Of a stretch of 64,000 nt of DNA, positions 41,147 through 64,000 are shown piece after piece. The DNA is taken from contig JAHJTF010000020.1 in NCBI GenBank assembly GCA_018830045.1, forward strand, positions 4,667 to 68,666, read 5' to 3'. The number at the start of each line of letters is the position of its first letter. Within the stretch, counting starts at the first letter, position 1. The translations under genes and the position numbers were made by a program. This stretch comes from Patescibacteria group bacterium (lineage in GTDB: Bacteria > Patescibacteriota > Microgenomatia > UBA1400 > PJMF01). The notes below the pieces were generated by a model, which saw only the letters and a list, made by a program, of their open reading frames with translations, was not told the origin of the DNA and did no database searches.

Positions 41147-41179
41147 TGAAAGCTAGCCAGTTCTGCTAAAATAGATCTG

Positions 41180-41758: not shown

Positions 41759-41788
41759 CTAGATACATGAAATAATTAAACTTAACTT

Positions 41789-44653: not shown

Positions 44654-45262
44654 ATGGAGATTCATCCTTATTATTATTCGTTGGAAAAACGTCTTTTTGA
44701 TGTAGTTCTAGCTATTTTTGTATTAATAATTTTATTCCCTATTCTATTAATGATTACCCTTTTAATCATGATCGGGATGGGATGGCCAGTGTTTTACCTG
44801 CAAAAAAGAGTAGGGAAAGATAAAAAAATTTTTGAGATGATTAAATTTCGCACCATGTATGTTGGTGCGCAAAAAAATCAATGGCGGTATCGCCAACACA
44901 ATCAGGCCCCAGAGCCAATGTATAAAAATTGGGACGACCCACGTTTTGTGAGCATAGGTAGATGGTTAGCAAAAACTGGCTTGGATGAACTTCCTCAACT
45001 CATTAACATTTTAAAAGGAGAGATGAGTTTTATAGGGCCAAGACCCCTACCAATACAAGAAGTTGGAAAACTAGATAAAACCTGGAATTTCAGGTATCTA
45101 GTCAGACAAGGAGTGTTTTCAGAATGGAGTACGTCTTTAAAAAAATACCTAACTCTCGAAGATTGGAAAAAACTAGAAGAAAAAACCCTCAGAAGAGGTG
45201 GGTTGGGGTATGAGGTTAAAACAATTGTCGCTACCTTTAAAACTTTATTACTAAAAATATAA
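44654..45262 (+). CDS. Polyprenyl-phosphate sugar phosphotransferase (bacterial sugar transferase, WbaP/EpsL C-terminal domain type)
   Basis: MIKFRTMY…DELPQLINILKGEMSFIGPRP, the signature of the bacterial sugar transferase family. Confidence 0.7.
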   Translation: MEIHPYYYSLEKRLFDVVLAIFVLIILFPILLMITLLIMIGMGWPVFYLQKRVGKDKKIFEMIKFRTMYVGAQKNQWRYRQHNQAPEPMYKNWDDPRFVSIGRWLAKTGLDELPQLINILKGEMSFIGPRPLPIQEVGKLDKTWNFRYLVRQGVFSEWSTSLKKYLTLEDWKKLEEKTLRRGGLGYEVKTIVATFKTLLLKI

Positions 45263-47998: not shown

Positions 47999-48212
47999 TT
48001 TAATAAATTTAAAGATAAAATTCAGGATACGTTTCTACAAATTTTATCAGTGTTTAGTTTAGCCGTGACTTATTTGTTGGGAGTGGGATTGACTCGCTTA
48101 ATATCAGTATTTGTTGATAAAAAATTTTTGCCCCCTGCTTCCACGAGCTCTCAGTGGCAGACAACAAAGTACTCAGATAAAGTTAATAATAGTTTATACT
48201 AAAACAATTTCT

Positions 48213-49970
48213 ATGATGAAAGTTCTGGGTATTTCTTGTTTTTATCATGACTCAGCCGCTTGTTTAACGTTGGATGGAAACATTATTGCTGCCGCTGCTG
48301 AAGAAAGGTTCAGTAGAAAAAAGCATGATAATGGTTTTCCAAAGTTAGCGATAGAATACTGTTTACAAACAGCTGGATTGGCAATTAATGAACTAGACGC
48401 CATTGCTTTTTATGAAAAGCCCATCTGGAAATTTGAAAGAATTTTGCACCAACACCTGGAACACTTTCCTAAAAGCTATCGGGCTTTTTTTGATACCACT
48501 GGCTCTTGGATCAACCAAAAATTAAACATTAAAAAAATTCTTCAAGAAACACTAAATTACTCTGGAGAAATTATTTTTTTACCCCATCATCTATCTCATG
48601 CGGCTAGTGCCTATTATTTATCGCCTTTTGATAAATCAGTCTTAGTCACTATTGACGGAGTAGGTGAATGGGCCACCACTACTATTGGTACAGCTAGTAA
48701 AGAGCAGCTCAAAATTGATCAAGAGATTCGTTTTCCTCACTCGCTAGGATTACTTTACAGCACCCTAACAGCTTACCTTGGATTTAAAGTCAATAACGAC
48801 GAATACAAAGTCATGGGATTAGCAGCTTATGGAAACCCAGATGAATACCAACCTGCTTTTGACAAATTAATCACTGTACATAAAGACGGTAGCTATGCTC
48901 TCGATATGTCTTACTTTGATTATGCTTGGGCTCAACGCATGCCGGCAAAAAAAATGGTGGCTTTGTTTGGTCACCCCATCAGAAAACCTGAAAGCAGAAT
49001 CTATCAGTACCATCAAAACATCGCAGCCACACTTCAAAACAAATTAGAAAAAGTGATTTTTAATTTACTCCAGGCAGCTCATAACAAATACCGCACTGAT
49101 AATCTCTGTCTATCGGGAGGTGTAGCTCTTAACTCTGTTATGAATGGTCGAATCCTGTCTCAAACATCATTTAAAAAAATCTTTATTCCTCCAGACCCGG
49201 GAGATGCCGGCGGAGCTATGGGGTCTGCTTTATATGTGACTTTAAACCCAGAGGTAATTCGAGGCTATGCAAACCGACATACAAAACACCTAAAAATCAA
49301 ACATAAAAAAATAGCTAAAAACTTCACTCCTTATTTAGGACCGGGTTATGCGTGGCATCAAATTGAATCAACTTTACAAAAAAATAAAAACCGTCTCAAA
49401 TACAAATATTTCTCTGATCAAGACAAATTATTAGATTTAATCTCTGACTTAATTATTAAGAAACATGTTATTGGTTGGTTCCAGGGTAGAATGGAGTGGG
49501 GTCCTAGAGCACTGGGAAATCGTAGTATCTTGGCTACTGCTACTGATCCTAAGATGAAAGATATTTTAAATGCTAAGGTTAAACATCGAGAAATGTTCCG
49601 TCCATTTGCTCCAGTGATATTAGAAGAATACGTTCCAAATTTTTTCAAGGCAGACCAGCCTTTGCCATCAATAAGTAAATATATGTTGATGGTTTATCCA
49701 TTTACAGAAAAAGGTAAAAAGGATATCTCGTCTGTAGTACATGTTGATAATACGGGCAGGTTGCAAAGCGTGAGTAGAAAAGATAACCCTCTTTATTATT
49801 CTCTAATTGAACGTTATTACCAAAAAACCGGCGTTCCAGTAATCATCAACACTTCTTTTAATATCCGCGGCGAACCAATTGTTTGCAGCCCTCAAGATGC
49901 GATCAATTGCTTTTTAGGAACTGACATTGATTATCTAGTAATCGACCAGTTTTTTGTCAGTAAAAAGTAA
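48213..49970 (+). CDS. Carbamoyltransferase (NodU/CmcH family)
   Basis: Start at MMKVLGISCFYHDSAACL…AAEERFSRKKHD…, the N-terminal signature of the NodU/CmcH family. The ORF extends to 48111. Confidence 0.65.
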   Translation: MMKVLGISCFYHDSAACLTLDGNIIAAAAEERFSRKKHDNGFPKLAIEYCLQTAGLAINELDAIAFYEKPIWKFERILHQHLEHFPKSYRAFFDTTGSWINQKLNIKKILQETLNYSGEIIFLPHHLSHAASAYYLSPFDKSVLVTIDGVGEWATTTIGTASKEQLKIDQEIRFPHSLGLLYSTLTAYLGFKVNNDEYKVMGLAAYGNPDEYQPAFDKLITVHKDGSYALDMSYFDYAWAQRMPAKKMVALFGHPIRKPESRIYQYHQNIAATLQNKLEKVIFNLLQAAHNKYRTDNLCLSGGVALNSVMNGRILSQTSFKKIFIPPDPGDAGGAMGSALYVTLNPEVIRGYANRHTKHLKIKHKKIAKNFTPYLGPGYAWHQIESTLQKNKNRLKYKYFSDQDKLLDLISDLIIKKHVIGWFQGRMEWGPRALGNRSILATATDPKMKDILNAKVKHREMFRPFAPVILEEYVPNFFKADQPLPSISKYMLMVYPFTEKGKKDISSVVHVDNTGRLQSVSRKDNPLYYSLIERYYQKTGVPVIINTSFNIRGEPIVCSPQDAINCFLGTDIDYLVIDQFFVSKK

Positions 49971-50131
49971 ATTAGAAAGTAAATATGCTAAAAGAACTTT
50001 TGGAGTACTTATGGAAAAATAAGGCTTGGTGGATCGCTCCACCAATTATCATTTTCACTATTTTTGGGGCTTTAATCATTTTTTCTAGTACCTCGCCAGT
50101 AAGTTCGTTTGTGTATATGATGTTTTAGTTA

Positions 50132-51115
50132 ATGAAACTAATTAAAAAAATTTTATTACCCGCTCTTATTTGTTTTTGTTCAATTATTTTAACGTACCGG
50201 GCGGCGTTTGCGATTGCAGAAAATTTCTTCTTTGACAAATTATTTTACAAAAAATCTGCAGTGTATGGTTATCAATCACATGATTCAAATCTGTTAAAGT
50301 ATCCAAATAACCAATTAATAGAAAAACGTATTACAGATTTACGACTTTTAACTAAAGCAGACTTAAATAAAGATCCACATGTGCTGGGAGTATCATCGGA
50401 AGATGATTATCGGATAGCAATTATCGGAGACTCATTTGTTTACGGCACTGGAGTGAAACAGGCTGAAAGGTTTCCTGAATTACTAGAAAAAAAACTCAAT
50501 AGCTATCGGAAAACTCAAGTTTTTGTTCTAGCTCAACCTGGCGATGGAATGCTGGAAAATTACGCGAAGTTTCTACTCGCCAAAGAAAATATTGATCCAG
50601 ATTTATTTATTATTGGTCTACTTCACAATGATTTATTAATTGATAATTCCAACAAATACCCTCGGCAACAAACCATCTATGAAAATTTAAAACAAGTTTG
50701 TCTTCAGCCAGAATTTAAATACTCATGGCCTAATTATCAGGCTTCTATCCAAGAGCTAATCGTCGACGGGTTTTATCCTTCATCTAAATCTGAGTACGCC
50801 AATATTTGCTATTTTGATAAAATTATAGTCGACATGACAAAGAATCCCGTACTTTTCTTTAGCTTCCACTCTAATCCCAGTAGCTATTTACCTGCTACTA
50901 ACGATGAGACTGAACAAAAATCAGACGCCATTGTGAAGCAATACAGCCAAATCATAAAAAATCACCAAGGAAAAATTGCTTACTTTGATGACCGCCTTCA
51001 ATATCAGCCAGTTTCTCACCTAGAAAATCATCCTTCAGTTAAAACCCACCAAGGTTACAGTGATTTACTAATGAAAGAAATTATTGAAAATCCACAATAT
51101 CATTTTTTACCATGA
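50132..51115 (+). CDS. Membrane-anchored SGNH/GDSL hydrolase-family protein, paralog 1
   Basis: N-terminal TM, shared FFDKLFYKKS box and a GDS block (IAIIGDSFVYGTGVKQA). Confidence 0.5.
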   Translation: MKLIKKILLPALICFCSIILTYRAAFAIAENFFFDKLFYKKSAVYGYQSHDSNLLKYPNNQLIEKRITDLRLLTKADLNKDPHVLGVSSEDDYRIAIIGDSFVYGTGVKQAERFPELLEKKLNSYRKTQVFVLAQPGDGMLENYAKFLLAKENIDPDLFIIGLLHNDLLIDNSNKYPRQQTIYENLKQVCLQPEFKYSWPNYQASIQELIVDGFYPSSKSEYANICYFDKIIVDMTKNPVLFFSFHSNPSSYLPATNDETEQKSDAIVKQYSQIIKNHQGKIAYFDDRLQYQPVSHLENHPSVKTHQGYSDLLMKEIIENPQYHFLP

Positions 51116-52107
51116 AAAAATTTCTGAAGTTTTTTTTGATTCTCACTACATTTTTGTTAAGCACCACAGCAACATACAAAATTGCTCACTTATTAAGCGA
51201 AAGGTGCTTTTTTGACAAACTGTATTACAAAAAATCACCAGAATATGGCTATTTTCTTCATAACACTAATCCTCTACTTAGTAAAAACAGTAAAATAATT
51301 GAGTCTAGAATTGCTGATCTTAAATTACTGACAGCAATAAACGAAAATAGTCACAATAATAGGATAAAAGGCATAACTAATAACGAGTCTTTTCAAATAG
51401 CAATCATCGGTGACTCATTTGTTTACGGCACTGGAGTGAAACAGGCTGATCGCTATGCTAATCGGCTAGAAAAATTACTTAATCAAATTAAACCAACAAA
51501 AATATATGTTCTTGCTCTTCCAGGAGATAACATTTTGGAACATTATACAAAATTTAAACTTGCCCAAGAAAATATCAAGCCTGATTTATATATTATCGGA
51601 ATTGCTAATAATGATTTATTAATTAATGATTTTATTTATCCTAATCAAGAATTTCTTTACCAAAAATCAAGAGAGGAATGCTTTCTGCCTGAATTTAAAT
51701 ATAATTGGCCAGATTATGCTATTACTATAGATCAGTTAATTTTAACTGCCTATTATCCAAGTTTTGATGATCAATATGCCAATATTTGCTATCTAAAAAA
51801 AATAATAAAAGAAATAGCAACAACAAACACCCTCTTTTTTAATTTTTATAAAATAGAAAATACTAATTCAACTCAAGACCTCAGTGAGGCTGAACAGAAA
51901 GATATTCAAATCATGAAAAAATACACCGAGATAATCCAACTGGCAGGAGGTCAAATTTTTCACCTCCATAACTCTCGGGTTTCAGGTGAGTATCAACCAG
52001 TCTCATTTTTGGAAGGACACCCATCAAAAGAAACGCATGAGTGGTTTGCAAAAGCCTTGTTTAATAGAATAATTATAAATAATAATTTAGGCTTTACCCA
52101 TGACTAA
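51112..52107 (+). CDS. Membrane-anchored SGNH/GDSL hydrolase-family protein, paralog 2
   Basis: Same architecture (FFDKLYYKKS; IAIIGDSFVYGTGVKQA). Its start overlaps the stop of paralog 1. Confidence 0.5.
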   Translation: MKKFLKFFLILTTFLLSTTATYKIAHLLSERCFFDKLYYKKSPEYGYFLHNTNPLLSKNSKIIESRIADLKLLTAINENSHNNRIKGITNNESFQIAIIGDSFVYGTGVKQADRYANRLEKLLNQIKPTKIYVLALPGDNILEHYTKFKLAQENIKPDLYIIGIANNDLLINDFIYPNQEFLYQKSREECFLPEFKYNWPDYAITIDQLILTAYYPSFDDQYANICYLKKIIKEIATTNTLFFNFYKIENTNSTQDLSEAEQKDIQIMKKYTEIIQLAGGQIFHLHNSRVSGEYQPVSFLEGHPSKETHEWFAKALFNRIIINNNLGFTHD

Positions 52108-53107
52108 ACTTTGGAAAATTGTCCTATTAATAAGTTTGGGGCTATTATCTGGATTACTGACCATAAAAATCAGTTATTTTTTAGCAGAAACTTATTTCTT
52201 TGACAAATTTTATTATTATAAAAGTATCGAGCATGGTTACTGGATTCCAGGACAAAAACTAACTTTAGAAAATTTTGGTGAAAGAGCTCTTGATCTGATT
52301 CAATTAGACAAAAACTTTCAAGCTACTAAAAACGGAGAGCGAATTTTAGAAATTAATGAGGATGAAGCATACACCATAGCTCTTATTGGAGATTCCTACG
52401 CTTGGGGGCAAGGAGTTAGATTTGAAGATACTATTTCTCAATTATTGGAAAAAAAGCTAAATCAATATAAAAAAACCACTGTGCTGTCATTGGGGTATTC
52501 TGGAGACTCAATTCTTGATTATTTTATAAGATATGATCAGCTGAGACAAACCTATCCGATAGATCTTTATATTTTTATGTTAGTTGAAAATGATTTATTA
52601 TTAGTTAAAGATTATGAAAAAAGGTATGAGCAGACATCGATATTCCATGATTGTCAAAGCCTCTTCCCTGAACAAAAACCTATCTACGACTTATCTAATA
52701 ATGATTATGAGCTAAGAATATTTAACGGTTCTGACATATTAGAAAAAGAATGGGCGGAAAGATTTGAGCAATCATGGTATTCAGAATTAAATTTATGCAT
52801 TTTAGACCAAAGTTTACAAGCCTTACCAACAGACAATGCCATTTTTTTTATCAGCTTATACCGTGATGAGGAAAATTCACAACCACAATGGAAAACTTAT
52901 AGAGAATACTTAAATAAAAACCAAAAAACAGTATTGCGCTCCGCCGATGCCAAAACGCTAGATGACTATAAACGTTTCTGGAAAAAACCCTCGAAATATT
53001 TTTCAGTTTCTCCAAAAGACTCCGGGCACCCTTCAAAAACTGCCCACCGCATGTTTGCTGATTTATTAGGTAGAGAAATTTTAACTAATCTTAAGTGGGG
53101 ATTTTGA
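52100..53107 (+). CDS. Membrane-anchored SGNH/GDSL hydrolase-family protein, paralog 3 (more divergent)
   Basis: FFDKFYYYKS; IALIGDSYAWGQGVRFE. Confidence 0.45.
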   Translation: MTKLWKIVLLISLGLLSGLLTIKISYFLAETYFFDKFYYYKSIEHGYWIPGQKLTLENFGERALDLIQLDKNFQATKNGERILEINEDEAYTIALIGDSYAWGQGVRFEDTISQLLEKKLNQYKKTTVLSLGYSGDSILDYFIRYDQLRQTYPIDLYIFMLVENDLLLVKDYEKRYEQTSIFHDCQSLFPEQKPIYDLSNNDYELRIFNGSDILEKEWAERFEQSWYSELNLCILDQSLQALPTDNAIFFISLYRDEENSQPQWKTYREYLNKNQKTVLRSADAKTLDDYKRFWKKPSKYFSVSPKDSGHPSKTAHRMFADLLGREILTNLKWGF

Positions 53108-54539
53108 CTTTTAATACTAAAAAGGAAGAATTATTGAGTAGCGTTTCTGCATTATCAAAGTAAAAATTTTTATATTCAGCTGAATCTTCTTTTTCTATAA
53201 TCATTAATCCGTTAGCTGGTAAAGTCTCAGCAGAGAGAAAGTCAACTGATTGTTCCTCAATATAGGTCAAGATACCAGTATAAAACCTTAGGGTAAAAAA
53301 CTGGTGTAGTGGTTCTGTTTTTCTAGCATAGTAATTGATTTCCAGTTCATCACCACATTTTTGATCAGTGCACAAATCAACCAGCTCATTAAAATTTCTA
53401 ATCCTCTCAGTTGGGAAAAAACTACCATATCTAAGTCTATTTGCTGTTTCAAGCAGATAATAAGTGTGTGTAATAGTTATCATAACTACGCCAATCACAA
53501 AAAGAATTAAAAACCAGTTATCTTTTTTTAAAAAGCGATTATGGATTAAAACTATTATTTTCTTTAAACCGACTATTAAATAGGCAACAACAAAAGGTAG
53601 AATAATTAATAAGTAGCGACGAGCAAACCATTCTAAAATAGCAGCAAAAGATTGATAAACCAAAGCAAAAAATATGATGATTGAAATAATAAATCCAACT
53701 GAAGACTTATCTTTCTTATTAGTTAAAGTAACTAAAAAACCAACTAAAGAAAATAATAAAACAGGAATCGAAAATAATTCTACTAATGCTCGCCACCAAT
53801 TAAGAATTGAATAATTAAAATTTAAGTAGGCATGAGAGAAATTTTCTAAGGAGCTATTTCTCATATTGGTTAAAAACAACAGAAAGTCATTTGATGAATA
53901 GTAATTTATTGCCAACCACAAAAAAGGCACGATAATTAAAACTAAAATCAATACTCGCTTTATTCTAGAAGATTGAGCTGACTTATATACATACCACATG
54001 ATTAGGGGAGTTAAATACCAAGCCTCATACCTAATTCCTTGAGCTACCATAAAACTACCCACACCCCAAATGTAACGAGGTGAATCTTTTAAAATTAAAA
54101 TCAATGCTAATAAGAGAAAAAATACAAATACCTGCTCTGTAAAAGGAAAAGTACTAATTAAAAACCGATAAGGGAAAAACAGATAAATTAAGCCTGCTAA
54201 AACAGCTTCCCGAGAGTTTAAATCAAGTAATTCGCGGCAGTAGAAATAAACCAATACTACTGTGCCAGAACTAAAAAGAAGATTAACCACTCTGGGAGTT
54301 AGAGTAAAATCATCTAGAACGTGCAAAGCACCCCCCAGTAACAACGGATAAAGCGGCAGCCACAGGCCAGTGTATAGCGTATTGAGCGAGCCACTGTCTT
54401 TAAATGCTTTGGCAGTCAAAGAATGTATATAAGGATCTGTTTCGGTATACATTGGAGTCTTAAGCTGGGGTATAGCGACAATGGCTGAAAAAAGAAAAAG
54501 TAATAACGGGGTAACTAAATGGATTCGTTTTAAAATCAT
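53091..54539 (-). CDS. Polytopic membrane glycosyltransferase, GT39/GT83 (ArnT/PMT)-like
   Basis: 482 aa with more than 10 TM segments and an N-terminal loop containing an acidic motif (TETDPY). Called by family resemblance. Confidence 0.35.
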   Translation of the reverse strand: MILKRIHLVTPLLLFLFSAIVAIPQLKTPMYTETDPYIHSLTAKAFKDSGSLNTLYTGLWLPLYPLLLGGALHVLDDFTLTPRVVNLLFSSGTVVLVYFYCRELLDLNSREAVLAGLIYLFFPYRFLISTFPFTEQVFVFFLLLALILILKDSPRYIWGVGSFMVAQGIRYEAWYLTPLIMWYVYKSAQSSRIKRVLILVLIIVPFLWLAINYYSSNDFLLFLTNMRNSSLENFSHAYLNFNYSILNWWRALVELFSIPVLLFSLVGFLVTLTNKKDKSSVGFIISIIIFFALVYQSFAAILEWFARRYLLIILPFVVAYLIVGLKKIIVLIHNRFLKKDNWFLILFVIGVVMITITHTYYLLETANRLRYGSFFPTERIRNFNELVDLCTDQKCGDELEINYYARKTEPLHQFFTLRFYTGILTYIEEQSVDFLSAETLPANGLMIIEKEDSAEYKNFYFDNAETLLNNSSFLVLKVKIPT

Positions 54540-54544
54540 AATAA

Positions 54545-55024
54545 TTATTTTAGGTCATCTAAAAAACTTTTTAATTTCTTGACAATGCTTTGAGACTGCC
54601 CCCAAGTTATTTTCCCTGATTGATAAGACTGAACCTGATAAAATAGTTCTTTTTTATCTAAACACAGATATATTTTATTTTTTTTGGCTAATTCTTGAGC
54701 AAAATATAGTTGATGATCGCTAACATGTTCACCATATTTTTTAAGCCTAGGAATAACAATTGGTTTTTTTCCTGCCAAGAAGATGCTTTGATAAATCGTA
54801 GCTGGCCCGGCATGAGAAATCACTATTCTTGCTTTTCTTAATAAAGAAACGAACTCATTAAAATTATAGTTGGATTTTTGTACAGCGCCTGCGACTAAAA
54901 TAGTAGCAGTGCCAGATTGAATAATTACTTTTTCTTTAATTTTTTTTTGTTTAATAAGAGCATTTATTAAAAGTAACAATCTATCAAACGGCAAATGATG
55001 AGTCCCAACTGTCACAAAAATCAT
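54545..55024 (-). CDS. Alg13-like glycosyltransferase subunit (GT28 C-terminal domain, PssE-like)
   Basis: MIFVTVGTHHLPFDRL… N-terminus typical of Alg13/PssE. It is paired with the Alg14-like gene upstream. Confidence 0.6.
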   Translation of the reverse strand: MIFVTVGTHHLPFDRLLLLINALIKQKKIKEKVIIQSGTATILVAGAVQKSNYNFNEFVSLLRKARIVISHAGPATIYQSIFLAGKKPIVIPRLKKYGEHVSDHQLYFAQELAKKNKIYLCLDKKELFYQVQSYQSGKITWGQSQSIVKKLKSFLDDLK

Positions 55025-55470
55025 AGCGTACTCCCCCAGTATTTCGCTTTAGGGAAAAATCTTTGTTGTTGAACATTTTGAATCAAGAACAAATCGGCCA
55101 GAAGATAAACTAATCGACCGCTAAGCGATGGTTTATCAATAAAGTCTAAAGGCTCAATAAAAACCAAAGTCATACCGAAAAGTTTCCCAACTATAAAAAA
55201 AGGAGGAGCAATTCCTGCTCCCGCACTGATTAACACTTGCGGTTTTTCTTTCAGCAGGATCTTAAACGCCAACCATAAGTTATAAAAAAAATTAAGAATA
55301 TTCCGACTTTCAGGATAGTAGGCTAAGTATAGATTTTCACCTTCAAGAAGACTAATTGTGTCAGATTTATCAAAGCTAACCCAAAAATGGACTCTGTTTT
55401 CCCAACAAGACTTCAGTTGTAAAAGTTGAAATAAGTGACCCCCCGCTGACGTTACTAGCCCAATCTTCAT
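55021..55470 (-). CDS. Alg14-like glycosyltransferase membrane subunit (PssD-like)
   Basis: MKIGLVTSAGGHLFQLLQL… and the pairing with the Alg13-like gene downstream. Confidence 0.6.
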   Translation of the reverse strand: MKIGLVTSAGGHLFQLLQLKSCWENRVHFWVSFDKSDTISLLEGENLYLAYYPESRNILNFFYNLWLAFKILLKEKPQVLISAGAGIAPPFFIVGKLFGMTLVFIEPLDFIDKPSLSGRLVYLLADLFLIQNVQQQRFFPKAKYWGSTL

Positions 55471-56636
55471 GATTTAGATTGTAGTTTAAAAATTTCCCTA
55501 AGCCCATACCAAGGTTTGCCTGTCAGACGAAACCAAAGATATTTTTTAAACTCCCTAGGAATAGATCTCTCTACATCGCAACCGCTGTTGCAACCCAAAC
55601 ATGAACTTCCAAGCATCTTTTGCTTAAATTTTATGTTTTTATGATCAAATAAAATTTCACTCACGGTTTGATCAGAGCGACAATTTCCTATTTTACGTTC
55701 TGAAAAACAATAATAAACATCACCAAAACTATCCAAAGCAAACTGATCATATTGGAAAGGACAAGCGGTTGTTCTGGGTCGACCATCGCGATACATATGG
55801 AGTAAATCCTTCCAATAATAAGCTCGGAAATCTTTCCATGATTTAGGCTGACTCATCTCTTCCATAAATGATTCCAACTGTTTTTGTTCTTTTTTTCTAA
55901 AACTAACTTCCTTCTTTGTATCCAGATTATTAATATAAGTATCATGGAAGCCCACAATTTGAAATGTGCCATTTATTTGATTATCTTCATACCACTTTTT
56001 CATTTTGTTAATCTCAGGTAAATTCTGCCTCAGCACCAACGAGCCACTTCCTACCCAAAACCCATATTGTTTTGATAGTTTTTTTAATTGAAACAGAGTG
56101 GCGGTGGTTTTTTCAAAGGCATTGGGAATACGTCTAATTTTTTCATGCATCTTACCCACACCATCCAGAGAGATACTCACGCTTAGCTCAACATCATGCT
56201 TATTACAGATTTTGGCAATTTCTATCACTCGTTTGACAATTAATTCAGTCATAAAACCATGAGAAACCATTGTTAGTTTGCGCAACTTTGGCATAGAGCG
56301 AATTATCAACTCAGCCATTTGAGGTAATTGTGGATGGAGAGATACTTCTCCGCCCGTCAAGCCACAGCGTTCAATGTTGACAAACACTGGATCTTTAAAA
56401 ATCTTTTTCCAGTCCTCATATTTGAGTTCATCCTTGGGCTTCATTTTCCAAATATTACACATCACGCATCGGGAATTACAGTGATAAGTCAGTCCTATTA
56501 AAACCGCTTTTGGTGACAGTGGCCTAAAATTATGAATTACATTATAGCGATACATTCCTTGAATAATTCTACCGATTTTATAAAGCTTGCGACGAACTTT
56601 TAGCTGCATAGATGAAAACTTCTGATTTGAAATCAT
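55467..56636 (-). CDS. Radical SAM enzyme with C-terminal SPASM-like Cys cluster
   Basis: CNSRCVMC (CxxxCxxC) near the N-terminus, plus C-terminal cysteines (…ACPF…YYCFS…GNCRS…CLGCNSGC). Confidence 0.65.
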   Translation of the reverse strand: MISNQKFSSMQLKVRRKLYKIGRIIQGMYRYNVIHNFRPLSPKAVLIGLTYHCNSRCVMCNIWKMKPKDELKYEDWKKIFKDPVFVNIERCGLTGGEVSLHPQLPQMAELIIRSMPKLRKLTMVSHGFMTELIVKRVIEIAKICNKHDVELSVSISLDGVGKMHEKIRRIPNAFEKTTATLFQLKKLSKQYGFWVGSGSLVLRQNLPEINKMKKWYEDNQINGTFQIVGFHDTYINNLDTKKEVSFRKKEQKQLESFMEEMSQPKSWKDFRAYYWKDLLHMYRDGRPRTTACPFQYDQFALDSFGDVYYCFSERKIGNCRSDQTVSEILFDHKNIKFKQKMLGSSCLGCNSGCDVERSIPREFKKYLWFRLTGKPWYGLREIFKLQSKS

Positions 56637-56642
56637 ATTATC

Positions 56643-57743
56643 CTAATCTAGCAATACGCGTAACGTTTTATCAATTAAAGATTGGTTATGATACTTTAAG
56701 ACAGTTCGTCTTGCTTGCTGACCAACAGCTTGTCTTTTTTTATGATCTTGTAATAACAAGATAATTCTTTTTCCCATCGCCATGGCAGTCTGCTCGATAT
56801 AACTGTTTTTTCCATGTTCCAAGTACTCTTCCGCTCCCGGATAAGAGAGGGTTATCGGGACGACTTGTTGCGTCATGGCCTCCAGCAGTACTAAGGGATG
56901 CCCCTCAAAATCAGAGGTAAGGGTAAAAAGTTTTGCCCTGGATAACTCAGTAATTATTTTTTTAGTGGGAGGCTTGATGATTATATTATCTTTTAGACTG
57001 TGCTTCTTAATATAGTGACGAAGTTTCTTTTCTTCAGGACCTTCTCCAATTAAACAGAGCTTTATTTTAGGCAAAGTTAATTTGATTTGTTTGACTATTT
57101 CGAGAAGTTTAATCAACCTTTTTTGAGGGGCAAAACGGCCACAATAAATAAGATCATACTTTTTAGACTGTCGATATAACCGAGTGTCTTTTATCCAATT
57201 TTGGATAACCACTACCTTATTAGGATCTGTCTTGTAGTTTTTAACTAAGTCTTGTTTAGCATATTCAGTCTGAACGATGATTGTATCAACTAGCCGATAG
57301 CACCAACTAATAATTATGTTGGAGTGAGTTCTGATAGAATAAGGCAATTGATTTTCAAATGAGAGCACGTTGTCTTGGCTAACAACAACTTTAATTTTTT
57401 TCCAAAAAAATAAGTACTTCATCAGCACACAGTAGGCGGTCGCATGATGCAAAAATGGCACTAAAATTTTGGGGTTATATTCCAGGATCAAATAAATTAA
57501 AAAAATAATATAGCGAATTTTACGTTCTTTACTTGGAAAAACATTTTCAATATGCAACTGCCTAAAACCAGCTGGAAGATCTGATTCAAAACTAAAAGCC
57601 TCTGTCCGACGAACTACAATATGAGGAATAATATCATAGTAATTTTGATCGGCTTCTAAATGGTAAACTAAATCAATTATTTTGCGCTGAATACCACCCA
57701 ACCCTAAATGAAAAAAAAGGAAAAAAACATGTCTATCCTGCAT
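56643..57743 (-). CDS. Glycosyltransferase family 4 (GT-B) protein
   Basis: CGRFAPQKRL…LIGEGPE…FEGHPLVLLEAM (the E-x7-E region). Confidence 0.7.
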   Translation of the reverse strand: MQDRHVFFLFFHLGLGGIQRKIIDLVYHLEADQNYYDIIPHIVVRRTEAFSFESDLPAGFRQLHIENVFPSKERKIRYIIFLIYLILEYNPKILVPFLHHATAYCVLMKYLFFWKKIKVVVSQDNVLSFENQLPYSIRTHSNIIISWCYRLVDTIIVQTEYAKQDLVKNYKTDPNKVVVIQNWIKDTRLYRQSKKYDLIYCGRFAPQKRLIKLLEIVKQIKLTLPKIKLCLIGEGPEEKKLRHYIKKHSLKDNIIIKPPTKKIITELSRAKLFTLTSDFEGHPLVLLEAMTQQVVPITLSYPGAEEYLEHGKNSYIEQTAMAMGKRIILLLQDHKKRQAVGQQARRTVLKYHNQSLIDKTLRVLLD

Positions 57744-57756
57744 ACTTAAATTTTTT

Positions 57757-58602
57757 TTACTCTGTGTAATTGATCGTCGATGACATCACCGAACCATCCC
57801 TGACATAGGTTTGACCAGAATCAGCCCAAAACGCTTCGCCAATCATAAAAGTCTGATAATGATTATAGTAACAAAGCTTGTCAACACAGAGTACATCGGG
57901 TAGTTCAAAAGTCGCTGTAATGTCTTTTTTAATTGGATCCCAGCGCAACAGCACATCTCCCCGATCATTGACCACTACTTTTTCAGCAGGAGTAATTTTA
58001 ACTTCTTTTGTTTTGAGGATAATTTCTCCCTTGCTGTTAGTGACTACAAAATTTTTGATTGCTTCCGCATGCCAAGGATCATAATCGCGATAGTGGACTT
58101 TGATCTCTGCATTAGCTCGCCGATAATCGGCGAAACGCTGTTCAGGATTTTTGTAAACATTAACCACTATACCAGTGAATGAGGTGTCATTAAATTTAAG
58201 GTTAAGTTCTTCACCTACTAAAAGAGGATTGCCGTCATACACGTAAGTTCTAGTAGTGGTATTATAAACTGCATCTAGTTTGACTACCATCTCGACGTAT
58301 AACCGTCTCCCTCCGTCCCAAACATTTTTTTCAATCTCTTGAATTTCAACTACTTTCTTGCCTACTGAATTGTAGCCCACATCGCCTACCCGAAGTTTAT
58401 TTACCTCCCAATATTCTGGAGGAAAAGAGTTTACGTTCCAATCCTGCCGTTGAAAAGTTAAGTCTATATAGATAAAGACTCTCTGCCTACGAAAGTAAAA
58501 AAGCAAAAATCCTACAATTAAAATACCGAATAAAATTAGAACCAAATCAATCAGAGTAATTTTTTTTAGGAGAGATTTTTTTAAATTTTTAAGATTGAGC
58601 AT
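57757..58602 (-). CDS. Hypothetical membrane-anchored protein
   Basis: 281 aa with an N-terminal TM. No recognisable motifs. Confidence 0.3.
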   Translation of the reverse strand: MLNLKNLKKSLLKKITLIDLVLILFGILIVGFLLFYFRRQRVFIYIDLTFQRQDWNVNSFPPEYWEVNKLRVGDVGYNSVGKKVVEIQEIEKNVWDGGRRLYVEMVVKLDAVYNTTTRTYVYDGNPLLVGEELNLKFNDTSFTGIVVNVYKNPEQRFADYRRANAEIKVHYRDYDPWHAEAIKNFVVTNSKGEIILKTKEVKITPAEKVVVNDRGDVLLRWDPIKKDITATFELPDVLCVDKLCYYNHYQTFMIGEAFWADSGQTYVRDGSVMSSTINYTE

Positions 58603-60049
58603 AAGCTATTCCTAAGAGCAACCACACAATACCACTAATTGGAATTGTTAACCACCAAGGATAAAACTGACTAACTAATAAATAACCCAAACACCCTAAA
58701 ATCAGTCCTTTTATAAGAATATTTTTTCCACTCACCAGCCAGCTGTATCCTTGGACTATTATTCTATATATAAATCTAATAAACAATAACAAACCCCCAA
58801 TTCCCAAAGCCGCTCCTACTTGAGCAAACAAATTATGAGCAGGAGTTGAATCATATAAATAAAATTCTGGTTTCCATTGATCTAAAATCTTATATTGATA
58901 CACATTAAGACCTAGACCCAAAGGCCTGGTAGCCATAAAGTGAGCAGCCATTTGTAAATGTCGCAAGCGATAAATTGCCCCGCCATCCTCTCTAAAAACT
59001 TGAGTCAGACTCATCAATCTATCTAGAATCATGGGTGCCAAGAAAATAATTAATAAACCTAAAATTATCCAGCCATATTTTTTTAACCAAACTGGCAACT
59101 GTACTTTGTTTTTCTTAATAATCAGTTGGTAGCTCACCAGAATCAACATCGCCCCGATCACCCAAGCTGCTCTACTGGCCGTTAAAATTAAGGCTAAACT
59201 ACCCACAACAAAACAGCTCATCATAAAACCCCGATGAAACCAAACTTTTTTGAAACTAAAAATAAACCACGATGGTAAGAACATGATCAAAATTGAAGAA
59301 GTCAAATTTGCATCCCAAAATATTCCTCCTGGTCTATATAAACTAGGAGATTCGTCGGCAAAACGACCAGCATATCCAGTATATTTTTCTTCAATTGCCA
59401 AACCAATGGGGCCACCATTGATTTTCTGTGCTACCACTAAACTAGCTAAAAACAAACCATAAATAAAAATTATTTCTAGTGTTTTTTTAGCCAAAGATTT
59501 GTCTTTAACTAAAGCCATAGCCAGAAATCCCATGGCAAACAACTTGGTTAATTGTAGTAACCAAAACCAAGATACTTCTGGTAATGGTGAGAGCAAAGAT
59601 GAAACTACCCCTAATGTTATAATTAGTAGCAGTGGCAAATAGGGAAAGGCATGAGGAATCTTAAAAGGCTTGCTGCCAGTCTTGAATCTACTTCTTACTA
59701 ATAAATAAAGTAATAAGATTAGTAACGCATCAGCAAAGGCTACAAAAAAAATAAGCTCGGGTTGCTTTAAGCCAAGTGCCGAATAATTGTCTGGAGCGAT
59801 GTAGGGTTTAATAAAGTATTTAGACTGTCTTAACAGATAAATACCAATAAAACCTAGCCACACTGAGTTTATTAATTCTTTATTTAAAAAATATATCACA
59901 ACAACTAATAACACCATCGCCAACAAGTAGGGTCGCAAAGTACCGATGTTCATTGATAATAAAATAAAAACAACATATACCCAAGACTCAGGTTCTAAAA
60001 TTCTTAAAAAAGATAAAAAAGAATTAGTAATTTTATGAAACATATGCAA
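58589..60049 (-). CDS. O-antigen ligase/polymerase-family membrane protein
   Basis: Polytopic membrane protein with a Wzy_C-like LTASRAAWVIGAMLIL loop. Confidence 0.5.
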   Translation of the reverse strand: MHMFHKITNSFLSFLRILEPESWVYVVFILLSMNIGTLRPYLLAMVLLVVVIYFLNKELINSVWLGFIGIYLLRQSKYFIKPYIAPDNYSALGLKQPELIFFVAFADALLILLLYLLVRSRFKTGSKPFKIPHAFPYLPLLLIITLGVVSSLLSPLPEVSWFWLLQLTKLFAMGFLAMALVKDKSLAKKTLEIIFIYGLFLASLVVAQKINGGPIGLAIEEKYTGYAGRFADESPSLYRPGGIFWDANLTSSILIMFLPSWFIFSFKKVWFHRGFMMSCFVVGSLALILTASRAAWVIGAMLILVSYQLIIKKNKVQLPVWLKKYGWIILGLLIIFLAPMILDRLMSLTQVFREDGGAIYRLRHLQMAAHFMATRPLGLGLNVYQYKILDQWKPEFYLYDSTPAHNLFAQVGAALGIGGLLLFIRFIYRIIVQGYSWLVSGKNILIKGLILGCLGYLLVSQFYPWWLTIPISGIVWLLLGIAYAQS

Positions 60050-60787
60050 AAGAAAAGCTTTTATTTTTATGAAAGATGGCTCAACTCCTTAGGTTTATTC
60101 GATATTCTTAAAAAAATAATTGATGCAAAATGGATCAAACATTCACATTATAAATCTGATTTGTATAAATACTCAACTAGTCAATTTTTGATCCGACATT
60201 TCTTTGGCTACAATGGACACCAAGTTAATCACAATACAGGTAACTTGGGTTTCGGTTTCCTTCATTATGCTTTTATTATTGCCTCAAGGCCAGAGAGAAT
60301 TTTGTGTATTGGTTCTGAGCAAGGATTTATTCCTGCTATTTGCGCCCTAGCTTGCAAAGACAACAATAAGGGACATGTTGATTTTGTTGATGCGGGCAAA
60401 ACTAGCAAAAATAAAAATCATTGGGGTGGAACTGGATTCTGGAAAAAAAATAATCCCCAACTACACTTTTCAGTTCTAGAACTAGAAAATTGGATTACTC
60501 CTTATATCATGACTTCAAAGCAATTTGCAAAAAAATATCAATATAAATATGAGTATATTTTTATTGATGGAGACCATAGTTACCCCGGAGTAAAATTCGA
60601 TTATGAAACTTTCTGGCCCCGGTTGGCAACTGACGGAATGATGGGATTTCATGATATTAGTCTTAAGGGTCTTAATGGTCAAGATGAGTATGGCGTCTGG
60701 AAAATGTGGAAAGAATTAAATAAAAAACACAAACTATCCTTTGAGTATCTGGATAACAGTGTTGGATTCATCCAAAAAAACGAGTAA
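60035..60787 (+). CDS. Class I SAM-dependent methyltransferase (Methyltransf_24/CmcI-like)
   Basis: IFIDGDHSYPGVKFDYETFW. Confidence 0.45.
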   Translation: MKHMQKKSFYFYERWLNSLGLFDILKKIIDAKWIKHSHYKSDLYKYSTSQFLIRHFFGYNGHQVNHNTGNLGFGFLHYAFIIASRPERILCIGSEQGFIPAICALACKDNNKGHVDFVDAGKTSKNKNHWGGTGFWKKNNPQLHFSVLELENWITPYIMTSKQFAKKYQYKYEYIFIDGDHSYPGVKFDYETFWPRLATDGMMGFHDISLKGLNGQDEYGVWKMWKELNKKHKLSFEYLDNSVGFIQKNE

Positions 60788-60791
60788 GTAA

Positions 60792-62174
60792 CTAAACCCG
60801 TCGATAGTATCGATCTAAAACAAAGCGCAATAACCCACTTCTAACACCAAGCTTACCGGGAAACACTCCTCTTAATTTAAGTAAAAAAAATAACCAGTTT
60901 TTTTCTACTTTAATGATAAACTGTTTTTTAATCTTTTTTCTCAGTTTTTCAATATCTTTCCAGGTTTTACTTTGCAATTGGTAATAAAAGTACATTGGAG
61001 GGATACCCATAACTGGAGCAGTAAACTTTTCTAAATCTACATACGAAAGTAATGTAAAACCAGGAATTTTAACCCTGCTAGTATCTTGAGCTTGAGTAAT
61101 TAACCCAACTTGATCGGTATAAACAGCCTCAATTAACATACAGCCCGAAGGATGAATCTGTTTTTTTATAAGTTTTTTCCCTAGCAATAAATCAATAAAT
61201 AAGCTAGCTAAGTCTACATGATAAATTTCTTGATAGGTATCCAAAATCTTACCACCCGGAAGTCGGGCCGCTGCCTCCAATAAGATTGGGCCATTGGTGG
61301 TAAGTTTCATCTCGATGTGAAAACCGCAGTTGTCAAAACCCAAGGCTTTCATCACTTCAAAAGCTGCTTGCTTACACTTTTTTTTAACTATGGGGGAAAA
61401 TCTGGCTGGAATAAAAGTGGCGTTTTGTAATAAGTAAGGTCCCGAAGTAGCTTCGTACTCCGCAATGGTAGAAAAAATTATTTTTCCATTCTGAATCAAT
61501 CCATCACAACTAAAAACAGTTCCCTCAATATACTCCTCAAGTAAAAAATGTGATTTGGACGATTGATAGTACTTCATCCACTCATCAAAATTAGCATTTA
61601 GTTGTTTTCTGGCTAGAGTGTATTTTTCAATAAAATCATCTTTTAGTTGTTGTCTCGTCTTCCCTTCCACTTTCATCACTCCATAACTATGACCAGAGCG
61701 AACGGCTTTAATCACTACCGGTGATTTAAATTTTTTTAATGTCCACAGACCTTCACTGAGATTGTCAAAAAGAGCAAACTGAGGAGTTGGGATTCCATGC
61801 TGTTTGCAACAAAGCCTCATCAAAAACTTATTAGCAGAACTTCTCCTGGCTGCATCTGCACTTAAAAATATTTTACCAAGCGCCTCTGCCAAATCTGCGG
61901 TTTGAACGATATTCATTTCAAAAAAAGTTAAAACTGCATCAAACTCAATCTGGTGATTTTTCATATACTTAGCAACGTCACTAATCAGAACATCAGAATC
62001 ATAAGTATTAGTCATAATTACATTTGATGCCGGCACATAAGACTTTATCCACTCTGGATAATTAGCAAAAGTCGCCAAATAAATTGATAAACCTTTCTTA
62101 GCAGCCGCCTTGAAGGTATACTCCTTGTCAGGAGTGCCCCAGTTCACATAAAGAATATTGTGTGTTTTTGACAT
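60792..62174 (-). CDS. ATP-grasp domain protein (carboxylate-amine ligase type)
   Basis: VVIKAVRSGHSYGV…LLEEYIEGTVFSCDG…, ATP-grasp fold motifs. Confidence 0.5.
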   Translation of the reverse strand: MSKTHNILYVNWGTPDKEYTFKAAAKKGLSIYLATFANYPEWIKSYVPASNVIMTNTYDSDVLISDVAKYMKNHQIEFDAVLTFFEMNIVQTADLAEALGKIFLSADAARRSSANKFLMRLCCKQHGIPTPQFALFDNLSEGLWTLKKFKSPVVIKAVRSGHSYGVMKVEGKTRQQLKDDFIEKYTLARKQLNANFDEWMKYYQSSKSHFLLEEYIEGTVFSCDGLIQNGKIIFSTIAEYEATSGPYLLQNATFIPARFSPIVKKKCKQAAFEVMKALGFDNCGFHIEMKLTTNGPILLEAAARLPGGKILDTYQEIYHVDLASLFIDLLLGKKLIKKQIHPSGCMLIEAVYTDQVGLITQAQDTSRVKIPGFTLLSYVDLEKFTAPVMGIPPMYFYYQLQSKTWKDIEKLRKKIKKQFIIKVEKNWLFFLLKLRGVFPGKLGVRSGLLRFVLDRYYRRV

Positions 62175-62180
62175 TTTATA

Positions 62181-63353
62181 ATGCTAAATAAACTCATTAC
62201 CACTTTAAAAATCGGATGTCGCTTGTGGCAAATAAAAAGCAAGTATCTTCCCAATGGTCATAAAAGTCTTCATGGTTCTTTTTATGTTAACAATAATCTT
62301 ACTGCCTATCTGAGTTATGTTTTATTTGTATATTTTAACCCATTACATTATGGGAAGTGGATAGAAAAGTTTCCACTAAAAACAAGCTCGCTAGCTGATT
62401 TAGAAATCGAAGTCTTCAAATCATTAATAACAACCTTCGGAGGCAACCTAGCTCATTGGACTGGTTTTATCAATAGTGGCGCTTCAGCGGGTAATTTTTA
62501 TGCTTTATTATTATGTCGAAATTGGTTTTTATCTCATGGATACAAAAAAATCACTCTTTATCACACACAATTAACTCATCACTCAATTACCAGCTCAGCC
62601 AAAATTTTAGGTTTCAAGATTGAGCAAATTGGACTTTCTGATCAATGGATAATGGAAGTAAGCGAGCTGAAAAAAAAGCTCTCAACTTTAAACAAAAATG
62701 AAGCTATTTGTATATTTTTAACCTGGGGATACAAACAAACTGGCACTACTGACAACCTAATTGCTGTTCAAAAAACCCTTAATGAGCTAAGGATTAATAA
62801 TCAGGTTAGTATTTGCCTAGATGCAGCCTTTGATGGCTTGGTTGCTCCTTTTTCACCAAAGTCAACAAAACCCCTAACCCTACCCTCATTATTCGCAATG
62901 ACTCTAGATTTTCATAAATATCTAGGGGTTCCGGCTCCAGCGGGCGGTATTTTACTACAGAAAAAATTTCTTCCTAAAGATAAGTTTATTGCCCAAGGTT
63001 TAACTGAAACCAAATCACTTTTGCCAGCTATTGCAGTTTGGTCGTCTTTGGTAGGAGATAGCCAAGTAGCTAGACTAAAAAAACAAGTAATAAAAGCACA
63101 GTCTCTGAGAAAATATTTTATTGATCAACTCAAAACTTCTTCTAATACTAAATTTATTTATCATCAAAACAATATTAATTTATTATTTTCTTGTAATCAA
63201 AAACAGTTTAATGAACTTCAAGCTGTTTCTAATCACTATCCCCTGCGTTGTTTTAAACAAAAAAATTCTTATTGGGTAAAAATTATCTTTTTACCGCAAC
63301 TAGATCAAACTAAAATAAATAACTTAATTAAGTTATTTAATGAGGCATCATGA
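62181..63353 (+). CDS. Group II PLP-dependent decarboxylase-like protein (MfnA/tyrosine decarboxylase-like)
   Basis: LDFHKYLGVPAPAGGILLQKKF matches the S/D-x-HK-x-G-x-P-x-x-x-G PLP-lysine region of group II decarboxylases. Confidence 0.5.
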   Translation: MLNKLITTLKIGCRLWQIKSKYLPNGHKSLHGSFYVNNNLTAYLSYVLFVYFNPLHYGKWIEKFPLKTSSLADLEIEVFKSLITTFGGNLAHWTGFINSGASAGNFYALLLCRNWFLSHGYKKITLYHTQLTHHSITSSAKILGFKIEQIGLSDQWIMEVSELKKKLSTLNKNEAICIFLTWGYKQTGTTDNLIAVQKTLNELRINNQVSICLDAAFDGLVAPFSPKSTKPLTLPSLFAMTLDFHKYLGVPAPAGGILLQKKFLPKDKFIAQGLTETKSLLPAIAVWSSLVGDSQVARLKKQVIKAQSLRKYFIDQLKTSSNTKFIYHQNNINLLFSCNQKQFNELQAVSNHYPLRCFKQKNSYWVKIIFLPQLDQTKINNLIKLFNEAS

Positions 63354-64000
63354 ACTGGCGGCTAAAAATTTGTGATTATCATCAGCTGTTATTTCCTCAA
63401 CATCACAGCTATATACTATTTGAGGGAGATTCAATTTACCAACACTTAAGTGTAAAATACCAACCTCAAATTAATTTTTTAGGCATGTTTTCCAACGATA
63501 AGTTTATGGCTGGCTGTAACACTAAAACCAAACTTCCTTGGAACTCACCGTTTTTTTTAGTGGACTTTTATCTTAAGCAACCCAAAAAGTTTTTATTTTT
63601 AGGAGGGGGACCTTGTTGTGCTCCAACAGCTCTGTGGAAAAGAGACAACGACCGCTCCATATCAATTGATATTGTGGAGCAAGATCCATTAGTTCTAGAA
63701 CTTGCTGCTAAATTTTTTAATCTTCCTAAAGATCGCCGGATTAACATTCATCATACTCAAGCTCAGCAATTTCTTATTCAAAATAAAAAAAAGTATGATG
63801 CTATTTTTTTCGATTTGGGCTTTACTTATGAGCGCAGAAATGACAAAAAATATAGTTTTTGTGCTCAAAAATTCACTCTCAAGCAACTCAAGAAAGCCCT
63901 TACTCCTCAAGGAATAATCATCTACGTAGTAATTGCTCGTCGGCAATGTCATCAAAAACAATTTTTATGTGAGTTGTATCAACAGTTTAAAAAATTTTTT
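63350..64000 (+). CDS. Partial CDS (runs off window end): spermidine-synthase-like / class I methyltransferase-fold protein
   Basis: ATG at 63350 overlaps the upstream stop (ATGA). YDAIFFDLG is an aminopropyltransferase-like motif. No stop occurs before 64000. Confidence 0.3.
   Translation, partial: MNWRLKICDYHQLLFPQHHSYILFEGDSIYQHLSVKYQPQINFLGMFSNDKFMAGCNTKTKLPWNSPFFLVDFYLKQPKKFLFLGGGPCCAPTALWKRDNDRSISIDIVEQDPLVLELAAKFFNLPKDRRINIHHTQAQQFLIQNKKKYDAIFFDLGFTYERRNDKKYSFCAQKFTLKQLKKALTPQGIIIYVVIARRQCHQKQFLCELYQQFKKFF

Follow-up and report, generated by a model that had tools for sequence, protein, structure and literature searches.

A conserved cassette of an ATP-grasp ligase, a PLP enzyme and two methyltransferase-type proteins in Patescibacteria glycan loci, with a possible role in amine decoration

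Results

A four-gene cassette in a surface-glycan locus

We analysed a stretch of 64,000 nucleotides (hereafter the window) from a Patescibacteria group bacterium (assembly GCA_018830045.1, contig JAHJTF010000020.1, positions 4,667 to 68,666 of the forward strand), at the end of which four genes form a cassette within a surface-glycan locus. They encode a Methyltransf_24 methyltransferase (MT24), an ATP-grasp ligase, a pyridoxal 5'-phosphate (PLP) enzyme of the group II decarboxylase fold and a protein of the spermidine-synthase fold (SpeE-like). The same set recurs among glycan genes of diverged Patescibacteria, and two of its proteins deviate at the active site from the enzymes whose names they bear. 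We tentatively propose, with confidence that stops somewhat short of even, that the cassette is a membrane-associated accessory decoration unit of an ABC-transporter-dependent glycan locus, which would decorate a lipid-linked glycan, through an amide linkage, with an N-methylated amine or aminoacyl group. The four genes are:

60035-60787, plus strand: MT24, 250 amino acids (Pfam PF13578, E 1e-15)
60792-62174, minus strand: ATP-grasp ligase, 460 amino acids (ATP-grasp_4, E 4e-18, 66 bits against a cut-off of 27)
62181-63353, plus strand: PLP enzyme, Pyridoxal_deC (PF00282), 390 amino acids (E 9e-10, 38.2 bits against a gathering score of 27)
63350-64000 (window end), plus strand: SpeE-like gene, Spermine_synth (PF01564), 217 of 279 codons (E 3e-8, 34 bits against 22.9)

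An earlier note on this DNA had named these superfamilies at these positions, and the open reading frames, together with Pfam matches above the gathering cut-off for all four proteins, bear it out. The genes are tightly packed: 4 bp separate the stop codons of the MT24 and ATP-grasp genes, the starts of the ATP-grasp and PLP genes (62174 and 62181) lie 6 bp apart on opposite strands, and an ATGA overlap joins the stop of the PLP gene to the start of the SpeE-like gene. On the other flank, the neighbouring Wzy_C and MT24 genes either begin directly against each other or share up to 15 bp (60035-60049). Because these starts nearly abut, promoters would have to sit within adjacent coding sequence. 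A public contig (L001), identical to the window but longer, supplied the full SpeE-like gene (L001:11170-12009, 279 amino acids, window-equivalent end 64189) and thus the extension called for by the earlier note. The same note had described a terminal module; since an ABC ATPase, an ABC-2 permease and a GT2 gene come next in L001, the impression arose only because the window stops there.

The four genes travel together across Patescibacteria

Relatives of the PLP enzyme and of the ATP-grasp ligase were looked up or scanned for, and every fetched locus (L numbers) was scored by tblastn. With L008, L009 and L034 counted as L007 and L037 as L016, the full four-gene set was present in at least seven distinct lineages, namely the window/L001, L007, L010, L012, L014, L016 (Candidatus Woesebacteria) and L036. 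Over these loci, identity ranged from 79% to 38% for the ATP-grasp ligase and from 71% to 28% for the PLP enzyme; taken over the proteins of the set, it spanned 27-79%, the most diverged relatives lying at 27-38%. Gene order varied, from the divergent arrangement of the window to a co-directional MT24, decarboxylase, ATP-grasp, SpeE-like order in L014, L016 and L036; in none of the arrangements observed did another gene separate the ATP-grasp and PLP genes. The set always sat among ABC-2 exporter, Wzy_C, GT4 and DUF4330-like genes, and carbamoyltransferase and Bac_transf genes were likewise always near it; radical SAM, GT4, DUF4330-like and Wzy_C genes co-travelled with the cassette in L007, L012, L013 and L016. 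Since the set recurs in diverged relatives with rearranged order, the association is far beyond chance. The earlier proposal that the genes are linked parts of a surface-glycan locus thus holds over distant Patescibacteria, where synteny with ABC-2, Wzy_C, GT4 and DUF4330-like genes is conserved. We looked both for assignment of the proteins to unrelated families and for unlinked genes in relatives, and found neither.

Variants of the locus showed which parts of the cassette are exchangeable. Three loci (L013, L015 and L025), which we call flavour B, kept the ATP-grasp ligase and MT24 and carried one or more class I/II aminotransferases, a short-chain dehydrogenase/reductase and radical-SAM enzymes instead of the PLP decarboxylase; L013 additionally encodes an amidotransferase of the Asn-synthase type. 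Typed with NCBIfam, the flavour B aminotransferases matched nothing beyond generic families, all below threshold (MocR-like, GntC, MppQ), and a CobD/Cj1436-type decarboxylase identity, which we considered for them, had no NCBIfam support. In L035 the MT24, ligase and PLP genes are intact beside a SpeE-like remnant of 68 amino acids (L035:9296-9502) in which the GGGP motif described below is still present, so that the SpeE-like step appears dispensable. MT24 directly preceded the Pyridoxal_deC gene, or stood one gene from it, in all three contexts sampled regardless of the decarboxylase and in L039; all four are glycan loci without the ATP-grasp ligase. Because this pair also occurs without the ligase, we regard MT24 and the PLP enzyme as a widespread pair, to which the ATP-grasp and SpeE-like genes are add-ons, and MT24 (at least 192 homologues) as the hub gene of the cassette. 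ATP-grasp relatives of at most 37% identity in unrelated contexts (L017-L024, L026-L031) were excluded from the cassette, and a metagenome scan with the PLP enzyme profile returned six loci only. No description of this cassette was found in our literature searches.

The PLP enzyme of the ATP-grasp-linked clade has a shortened catalytic loop

The PLP enzyme carries the motif DFHKYLGVPAPAGG, quoted in the earlier note, which had called the protein MfnA-like. Searched against the PDB, the family profile matched histidine decarboxylase (HDC) at 5e-26, serine decarboxylase (SerDC) at 2e-22 and MfnA at 5e-16. NCBIfam gave 104.2 bits against a cut-off of 305 for HDC (PRK02769) and 67.6 against 299.4 for MfnA (TIGR03812), both far under the equivalog cut-off. 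By sequence the enzyme is thus placed in the histidine/serine decarboxylase subgroup, nearer to these than to MfnA, and the earlier label, being imprecise, was rejected. The PLP-binding lysine K246, the stacking histidine H133 and the aspartate D214, which pairs with the pyridine nitrogen, do not vary within the family and have their counterparts in the alignment with HDC and SerDC.

The catalytic loop differs. The segment from the DxHK motif to the conserved tryptophan measures 45-46 residues in the window protein and in every ATP-grasp-linked orthologue, compared with 52 in HDC and in the paralogues found without ATP-grasp (L039-L042). The tyrosine of the (D/N)YL motif is kept in three of these four paralogues and is a phenylalanine in L040; the segment of the window protein has no tyrosine at all, and no tyrosine is conserved across the ATP-grasp-linked clade. 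By these alignments the clade has lost six or seven catalytic-loop residues, the essential tyrosine among them. This tyrosine protonates C-alpha and is essential in AtSerDC; mutants of Tyr341 in AtSerDC or Tyr336 in CsAlaDC undergo abortive decarboxylation and yield little or no amine (PMC11407765). The tyrosine is essential in aromatic amino acid decarboxylases too, and its loss from the large loop impairs C-alpha protonation and makes the plant enzymes aldehyde synthases (bioRxiv 10.1101/404970). Without this tyrosine, one cannot take for granted that the PLP enzyme decarboxylates in the usual way to an amine, and the straightforward amino-acid decarboxylation of the earlier note is not supported.

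The family is small: a word-indexed search found 8 homologues, and an exhaustive profile search 38 cluster representatives at E ≤ 1e-30. Serine hydroxymethyltransferase genes adjoin the paralogues at L040:6038-14338 and L042:7001-13988, a faint hint that serine may be the substrate of the family. The L040 paralogue also lies near an aldo-keto reductase and a class IV aminotransferase; the accessory sets around MT24 and the decarboxylase differ. Multi-domain distant relatives of the PLP enzyme were searched for a fusion to an ATP-grasp domain, and none was found. They were fused to a methyltransferase, a HAD phosphatase, TPR repeats, a tyrosyl-tRNA synthetase-like domain or a U32 peptidase domain, and are too remote for transfer of function. 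The fusions of the distant relatives P0102, P0133, P0140, P0170 and P0194 are to methyltransferase, HAD phosphatase or tyrosyl-/tryptophanyl-tRNA synthetase-like domains, which suggests that amino acids in phosphorylated or activated form are often the substrates of the wider PLP family.

The SpeE-like protein lacks the residues specific for decarboxylated SAM

The SpeE-like family has the spermidine-synthase fold including the N-terminal domain, its profile aligning with PfSpdS residues 15-156 at 1.4e-12. The best single-sequence match in the PDB was the C-terminal domain of METTL13 (METTL13-C, 5wcj), and scores against all aminopropyltransferase equivalogs were far under the cut-off (at most 40 bits against about 250 or more; for example 40 against 304). 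In spermidine synthases the aspartate of the GGGDGG motif and an upstream glutamine bind the aminopropyl amine of decarboxylated S-adenosylmethionine (dcSAM) and exclude S-adenosylmethionine (SAM) (PMC3725402). Here the aspartate is replaced by an invariant proline (Pro88, giving GGGP) and the glutamine by an invariant glycine (Gly55). In the Datura spermidine synthase, mutation D103I abolished aminopropyl transfer and conferred putrescine N-methyltransferase activity, which Q79T enhanced (PMC3725402). METTL13-C, which has the spermidine-synthase fold, trimethylates an alpha-amino group and needs a glutamate and an aspartate (PMC6109062), both of which are kept in the SpeE-like protein. The Post-II aspartate, D155 in FFDLG, aligns with D173 of hSpdS and D575 of METTL13-C; it is present in every sequence displayed and is not listed as invariant in the alignment that includes the approximately delimited L036 sequence. 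Because proline and glycine replace the dcSAM-binding residues and the METTL13-C glutamate and aspartate are kept, the protein is more likely a SAM-dependent amine N-methyltransferase, as predicted from these residues, than an aminopropyltransferase. The label of a true spermidine synthase was rejected on account of the same two replacements.

The ligase is of the L-amino-acid-ligase type and may act at the membrane

Sequence and structural model both place the ATP-grasp protein among carboxylate-amine ligases of the L-amino-acid-ligase (Lal) type. Its best PDB sequence matches were BL00235 and BacD, and its AlphaFold2 model (pLDDT 91) retrieved BacD/YwfE, BL00235 and RizA in Foldseek at TM-scores of 0.71-0.84, with the four-domain Lal fold. 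K156, E213, H286, E288, E300 and R304 are invariant, and the nucleotide and Mg residues are invariant over 26 homologues. The equivalog score was 43 for BacD, where the cut-off is 850, and 40 for DdaF, where it is 840. No TupA-family match was found in Pfam at E ≤ 0.01, the nearest structures being Lals and biotin carboxylases. The glycan-locus context argues for an acceptor other than the free amino acid of dipeptide ligation.

The window ligase is unfused and ends in a hydrophobic or amphipathic tail of low model confidence. Orthologues in L007, L011 and P0009 reach 762-765 amino acids (at least 664 for the L011 copy, which runs into a contig end) and consist of the ATP-grasp part, one transmembrane (TM) helix (hydropathy 3.0) and a C-terminal SGNH-like domain with a GDSH motif. 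The domain shows weak similarity (E 4e-6) to TM-anchored SGNH proteins that the locus also encodes; the three in the window (50132-53107) are 23-25% identical to the domain of L007. From these fusions in close relatives, and from the tail of the window protein, we infer that the ligase acts at the membrane, together with the machinery that builds the surface polymer.

MT24 resembles cation-dependent O-methyltransferases

A sequence search of the PDB with MT24 gave no match, and only the fold search was informative: with the AlphaFold2 model (pLDDT 90), the top Foldseek matches were MeT1 (6g7d), then cation-dependent (Mg-dependent) O-methyltransferases, at TM-scores of about 0.6. The earlier name of CmcI-like methyltransferase is not supported and was rejected, as the protein belongs to Methyltransf_24 with cation-dependent O-methyltransferases as neighbours; there was no CmcI (PF04989) match in Pfam at E ≤ 0.01 and no CmcI structure in the Foldseek top 50. 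D178, H181, H206 and D207 are invariant and D180 nearly so, all at the expected motif positions, where they would be compatible with a metal site. MT24 is a predicted cation-dependent sugar O-methyltransferase. Transfer of the aminocarboxypropyl group of SAM was considered as well, and nothing in the data favours it.

The surrounding locus

The Pfam scan gave the following genes upstream of the cassette, the first of them opening the low-GC glycan block:

44654-45262: Bac_transf
45266-47998: Wzy_C, unusually long (910 amino acids)
48111-49970: carbamoyltransferase
50132-53107: three TM-anchored GDSL/SGNH genes
53091-54539: DUF2079-like
54545-55470: Alg13/Alg14-like
55467-56636: radical SAM/SPASM
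56643-57743: GT4
57757-58602: DUF4330-like
58589-60049: second Wzy_C (486 amino acids)

GC content is about 0.38-0.44 over positions 1-46000 and 0.31-0.36 over 46000-64000, a stretch that spans the glycan locus, with a drop from about 0.40 to about 0.33 near 46 kb; such a fall is commonly seen in surface-polysaccharide islands that vary or are exchanged horizontally. In a monoderm-like cell of the Candidate Phyla Radiation (CPR), the two Wzy_C proteins could be polymerases or ligases of the O-oligosaccharyltransferase type. The SGNH genes are tandem paralogues of 327, 331 and 335 amino acids, each with an N-terminal membrane anchor, and the radical-SAM/SPASM gene has no close named family, its best NCBIfam matches being far under the cut-off. 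No SAM decarboxylase gene was seen within the locus.

Just upstream lie genes for a MurJ flippase and for PilN/PilO-like type IV pilus proteins (39375-42948), and before them LepA (37277-39052). Beyond the glycan locus, L001 encodes 5S and 23S rRNA (L001:14512-19503, about 2.7-7.5 kb past the window end), the 23S gene being broken by a group I intron and LAGLIDADG homing-endonuclease open reading frames, an interruption common among CPR bacteria.

Discussion

Starting from the observed family assignments, the linkage within glycan loci, the two active-site deviations and the fusions of ligase, TM helix and SGNH-like domain, we infer the substrates and the order of steps as follows. At the cytoplasmic face of the membrane, the Lal-type ligase would use ATP to couple a carboxylate to an amine through an amide bond, either on a lipid-linked glycan or on a group destined for it. 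The PLP enzyme would make or trim the amine, starting probably from serine, histidine or another amino acid that is small and polar, and without its lid-loop tyrosine might use a non-canonical protonation route or accept a bulky or tethered substrate. The resulting primary amine could then be N-methylated by the SpeE-like protein with SAM, not dcSAM, as an optional step. MT24 would O-methylate a hydroxyl of a sugar and might thereby cap the chain, and the adjacent ABC-2 exporter would release the finished polymer. The replacement of the decarboxylase by aminotransferases in flavour B loci suggests an amine as the common product of the module.

The proposal of the earlier note that an amine is ligated to a surface glycan is partly supported. 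The linkage, the swapped amine-forming enzyme, the TM-SGNH-like fusion and a Campylobacter jejuni precedent speak for it; the Pfam scans of the locus found no uronic-acid-forming enzyme (UDP-sugar dehydrogenase). Several further observations weigh against a glycan-decorating unit as we propose it. The substrates of known Lal-type ligases are free amino acids and not glycans, and ATP-grasp family members of ≤37% identity are encoded outside glycan loci as well. MT24 and the decarboxylase, which as a pair are more widespread, can do without the ligase. Judging from its loop, the PLP enzyme may release no amine at all, and the coincidence of loop deletion and ATP-grasp association opposes one clade to another, a single evolutionary event. 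Pfam does not call the fused C-terminal domain as SGNH.

The chemistry could also run in the opposite order, by the ligate-then-decarboxylate logic of butirosin BtrJ/BtrK: the ligase would attach an amino acid via its side chain and so keep the alpha-amino-acid head free, the lid-less PLP enzyme would remove the alpha-carboxylate of the tethered residue to give a terminal primary amine, and the SpeE-like protein would N-methylate this amine. An open active site would suit a bulky or tethered substrate, the deletion of six or seven lid-loop residues with the tyrosine is found only in the ATP-grasp-associated clade, and the ligase and PLP genes, with starts 6 bp apart, are neighbours in every arrangement observed. 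We nevertheless consider this order rather unlikely, although worth keeping in view: Lal-type ligases activate the alpha-carboxylates of free amino acids and nothing here shows side-chain ligation, BtrK is of a different PLP fold family, the ATP-grasp ligase of flavour B loci works without any decarboxylase, and the correlation with the loop deletion counts as one phylogenetic event. If ligation, decarboxylation and methylation took place on the polymer, with the amino acid tethered to a lipid-linked glycan or carrier, the Patescibacteria surface would bear cationic aminoalkyl decorations; we know of no counterpart described in glycan biosynthesis, and hold this outcome to be doubtful. The loop could instead mean that the PLP protein is no longer amine-forming and acts as a decarboxylating aldehyde synthase, or in another PLP reaction, with the amine of the ligase coming from elsewhere. 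The plant aldehyde synthases that arise by large-loop tyrosine loss (bioRxiv 10.1101/404970) and the abortive decarboxylation of the AtSerDC Tyr341 and CsAlaDC Tyr336 mutants (PMC11407765) point this way, as does the aldo-keto reductase adjoining the phenylalanine-bearing paralogue in L040. Against it, the PLP lysine, the stacking histidine and the aspartate are all kept, and the aminotransferases that replace the enzyme in alternative loci point to an amine as shared product. Aldehyde synthase chemistry moreover needs O2, a need unlikely to be met in most Patescibacteria, and we judge such a loss of amine formation to be unlikely.

Two further readings concern the product. The earlier note had suggested a polyamine-like route, in which the SpeE-like protein would be a true aminopropyltransferase building a polyamine-like amine that is then ligated to the glycan. 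The Spermine_synth match above gathering score, the profile match to spermidine synthases including the N-terminal domain (1.4e-12) and the kept Post-II catalytic aspartate would agree with it, but the aspartate and glutamine that bind the aminopropyl amine of dcSAM have become invariant proline and glycine, and an analogous change of aspartate to isoleucine kills spermidine synthase activity and creates a methyltransferase (PMC3725402). Equivalog scores about 8-fold under the cut-off, the lack of a SAM decarboxylase gene among those seen in the locus and the decay to 68 amino acids in L035 add to this, and make the polyamine route very improbable. The product might otherwise be a free small molecule, an N-methylated aminoacyl-amine or pseudodipeptide serving as solute, signal or antimetabolite, made by genes that merely lie beside glycan genes. 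The closest characterised ligases, BacD, BL00235, RizA and DdaF, all yield free metabolites of the dipeptide type, and more distant members of the ATP-grasp family occur outside glycan loci. This is hard to reconcile with a cassette that is embedded in glycan loci in every lineage found, despite rearrangement, with ATP-grasp fusions in which a TM helix leads to an extracytoplasmic domain akin to the SGNH proteins of the locus, and with a locus whose only dedicated exporter is the polysaccharide-type ABC-2 system; we think a free product quite unlikely.

Patescibacteria (CPR) are abundant and mostly uncultured episymbionts, whose surface chemistry governs host attachment and is, to our knowledge, essentially unknown. 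The cassette gives a testable hypothesis, namely a nitrogenous, probably cationic, N-methylated glycan substituent. It also offers two natural experiments, a spermidine-synthase fold apparently converted to a methyltransferase in bacteria, and a clade resembling HDC and SerDC that lost its catalytic lid loop where the ATP-grasp association arose. Labels such as spermidine synthase or decarboxylase on such genes should not be taken to show that CPR genomes encode a polyamine metabolism.

Known systems resemble the cassette in parts. ATP-grasp enzymes and PLP decarboxylases together install a decarboxylated amino-acid unit via an amide in butirosin (BtrJ/BtrK) and methanofuran (MfnA/MfnD) biosynthesis, the acceptors being an acyl carrier protein, or tyramine and glutamate, and neither system being glycan-linked; the cassette uses other protein subfamilies and acceptors, MfnA scoring well below HDC for its PLP enzyme. 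With the Lals BacD/YwfE, BL00235, RizA and DdaF, the ligase shares the four-domain architecture and an active-site motif of the E-x-x-A-R-x-x-G type. Unlike them, it shows 15-18% identity in structural alignments, scores 43 against an equivalog cut-off of 850, stands in a glycan locus instead of an antibiotic or dipeptide cluster, and has a membrane tail or TM fusion. The PLP enzyme keeps the lysine, stacking histidine, aspartate and Ser/Thr-Arg/Lys motif of Gram-negative HDC and plant serine/alanine decarboxylases, its closest solved relatives, but its loop is six or seven residues shorter, lacks the catalytic tyrosine, and the protein reaches a third of the HDC equivalog cut-off. Putrescine N-methyltransferase (PMT) and METTL13-C both methylate a primary amine with SAM (PMC3725402, PMC6109062). 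The SpeE-like protein resembles them in having the spermidine-synthase fold, in the loss of the dcSAM-specific aspartate and in the kept Post-II aspartate and ribose-binding glutamate; it differs in matching them only at E 4e-5 to 3e-7, in having proline, not isoleucine, for the aspartate and glycine for the glutamine, and in being bacterial and glycan-linked. MeT1, the 1-O-methyltransferase of the mycobacterial methylmannose polysaccharide (6g7d), is, with cation-dependent O-methyltransferases, the best structural match of MT24, whose conserved Asp/His positions would be compatible with a metal site; MT24 differs in a TM-score of only about 0.6, an identity of 10-15% and an extra N-terminal region of 70 residues.

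The closest known system in function is the glucuronamide pathway of the C. jejuni HS:2 capsule, in which the ATP-grasp enzyme Cj1438C amidates glucuronate on the growing glycan with small amines from neighbouring PLP enzymes (PMC11800379). Cj1438C is a TupA-like ATP-grasp protein fused to GT2, unlike the cassette ligase, which is Lal-type and either unfused or fused to a TM-SGNH-like part; and the cassette differs further by a PLP enzyme of the group II decarboxylase fold without the catalytic tyrosine, by its two methyltransferase-type proteins and by a locus in which no phosphatase and no uronate source was seen. What the two have in common is an ATP-grasp ligase in a polysaccharide locus beside PLP enzymes, as in Cj1435-Cj1438, and in this respect the flavour B loci come even closer.

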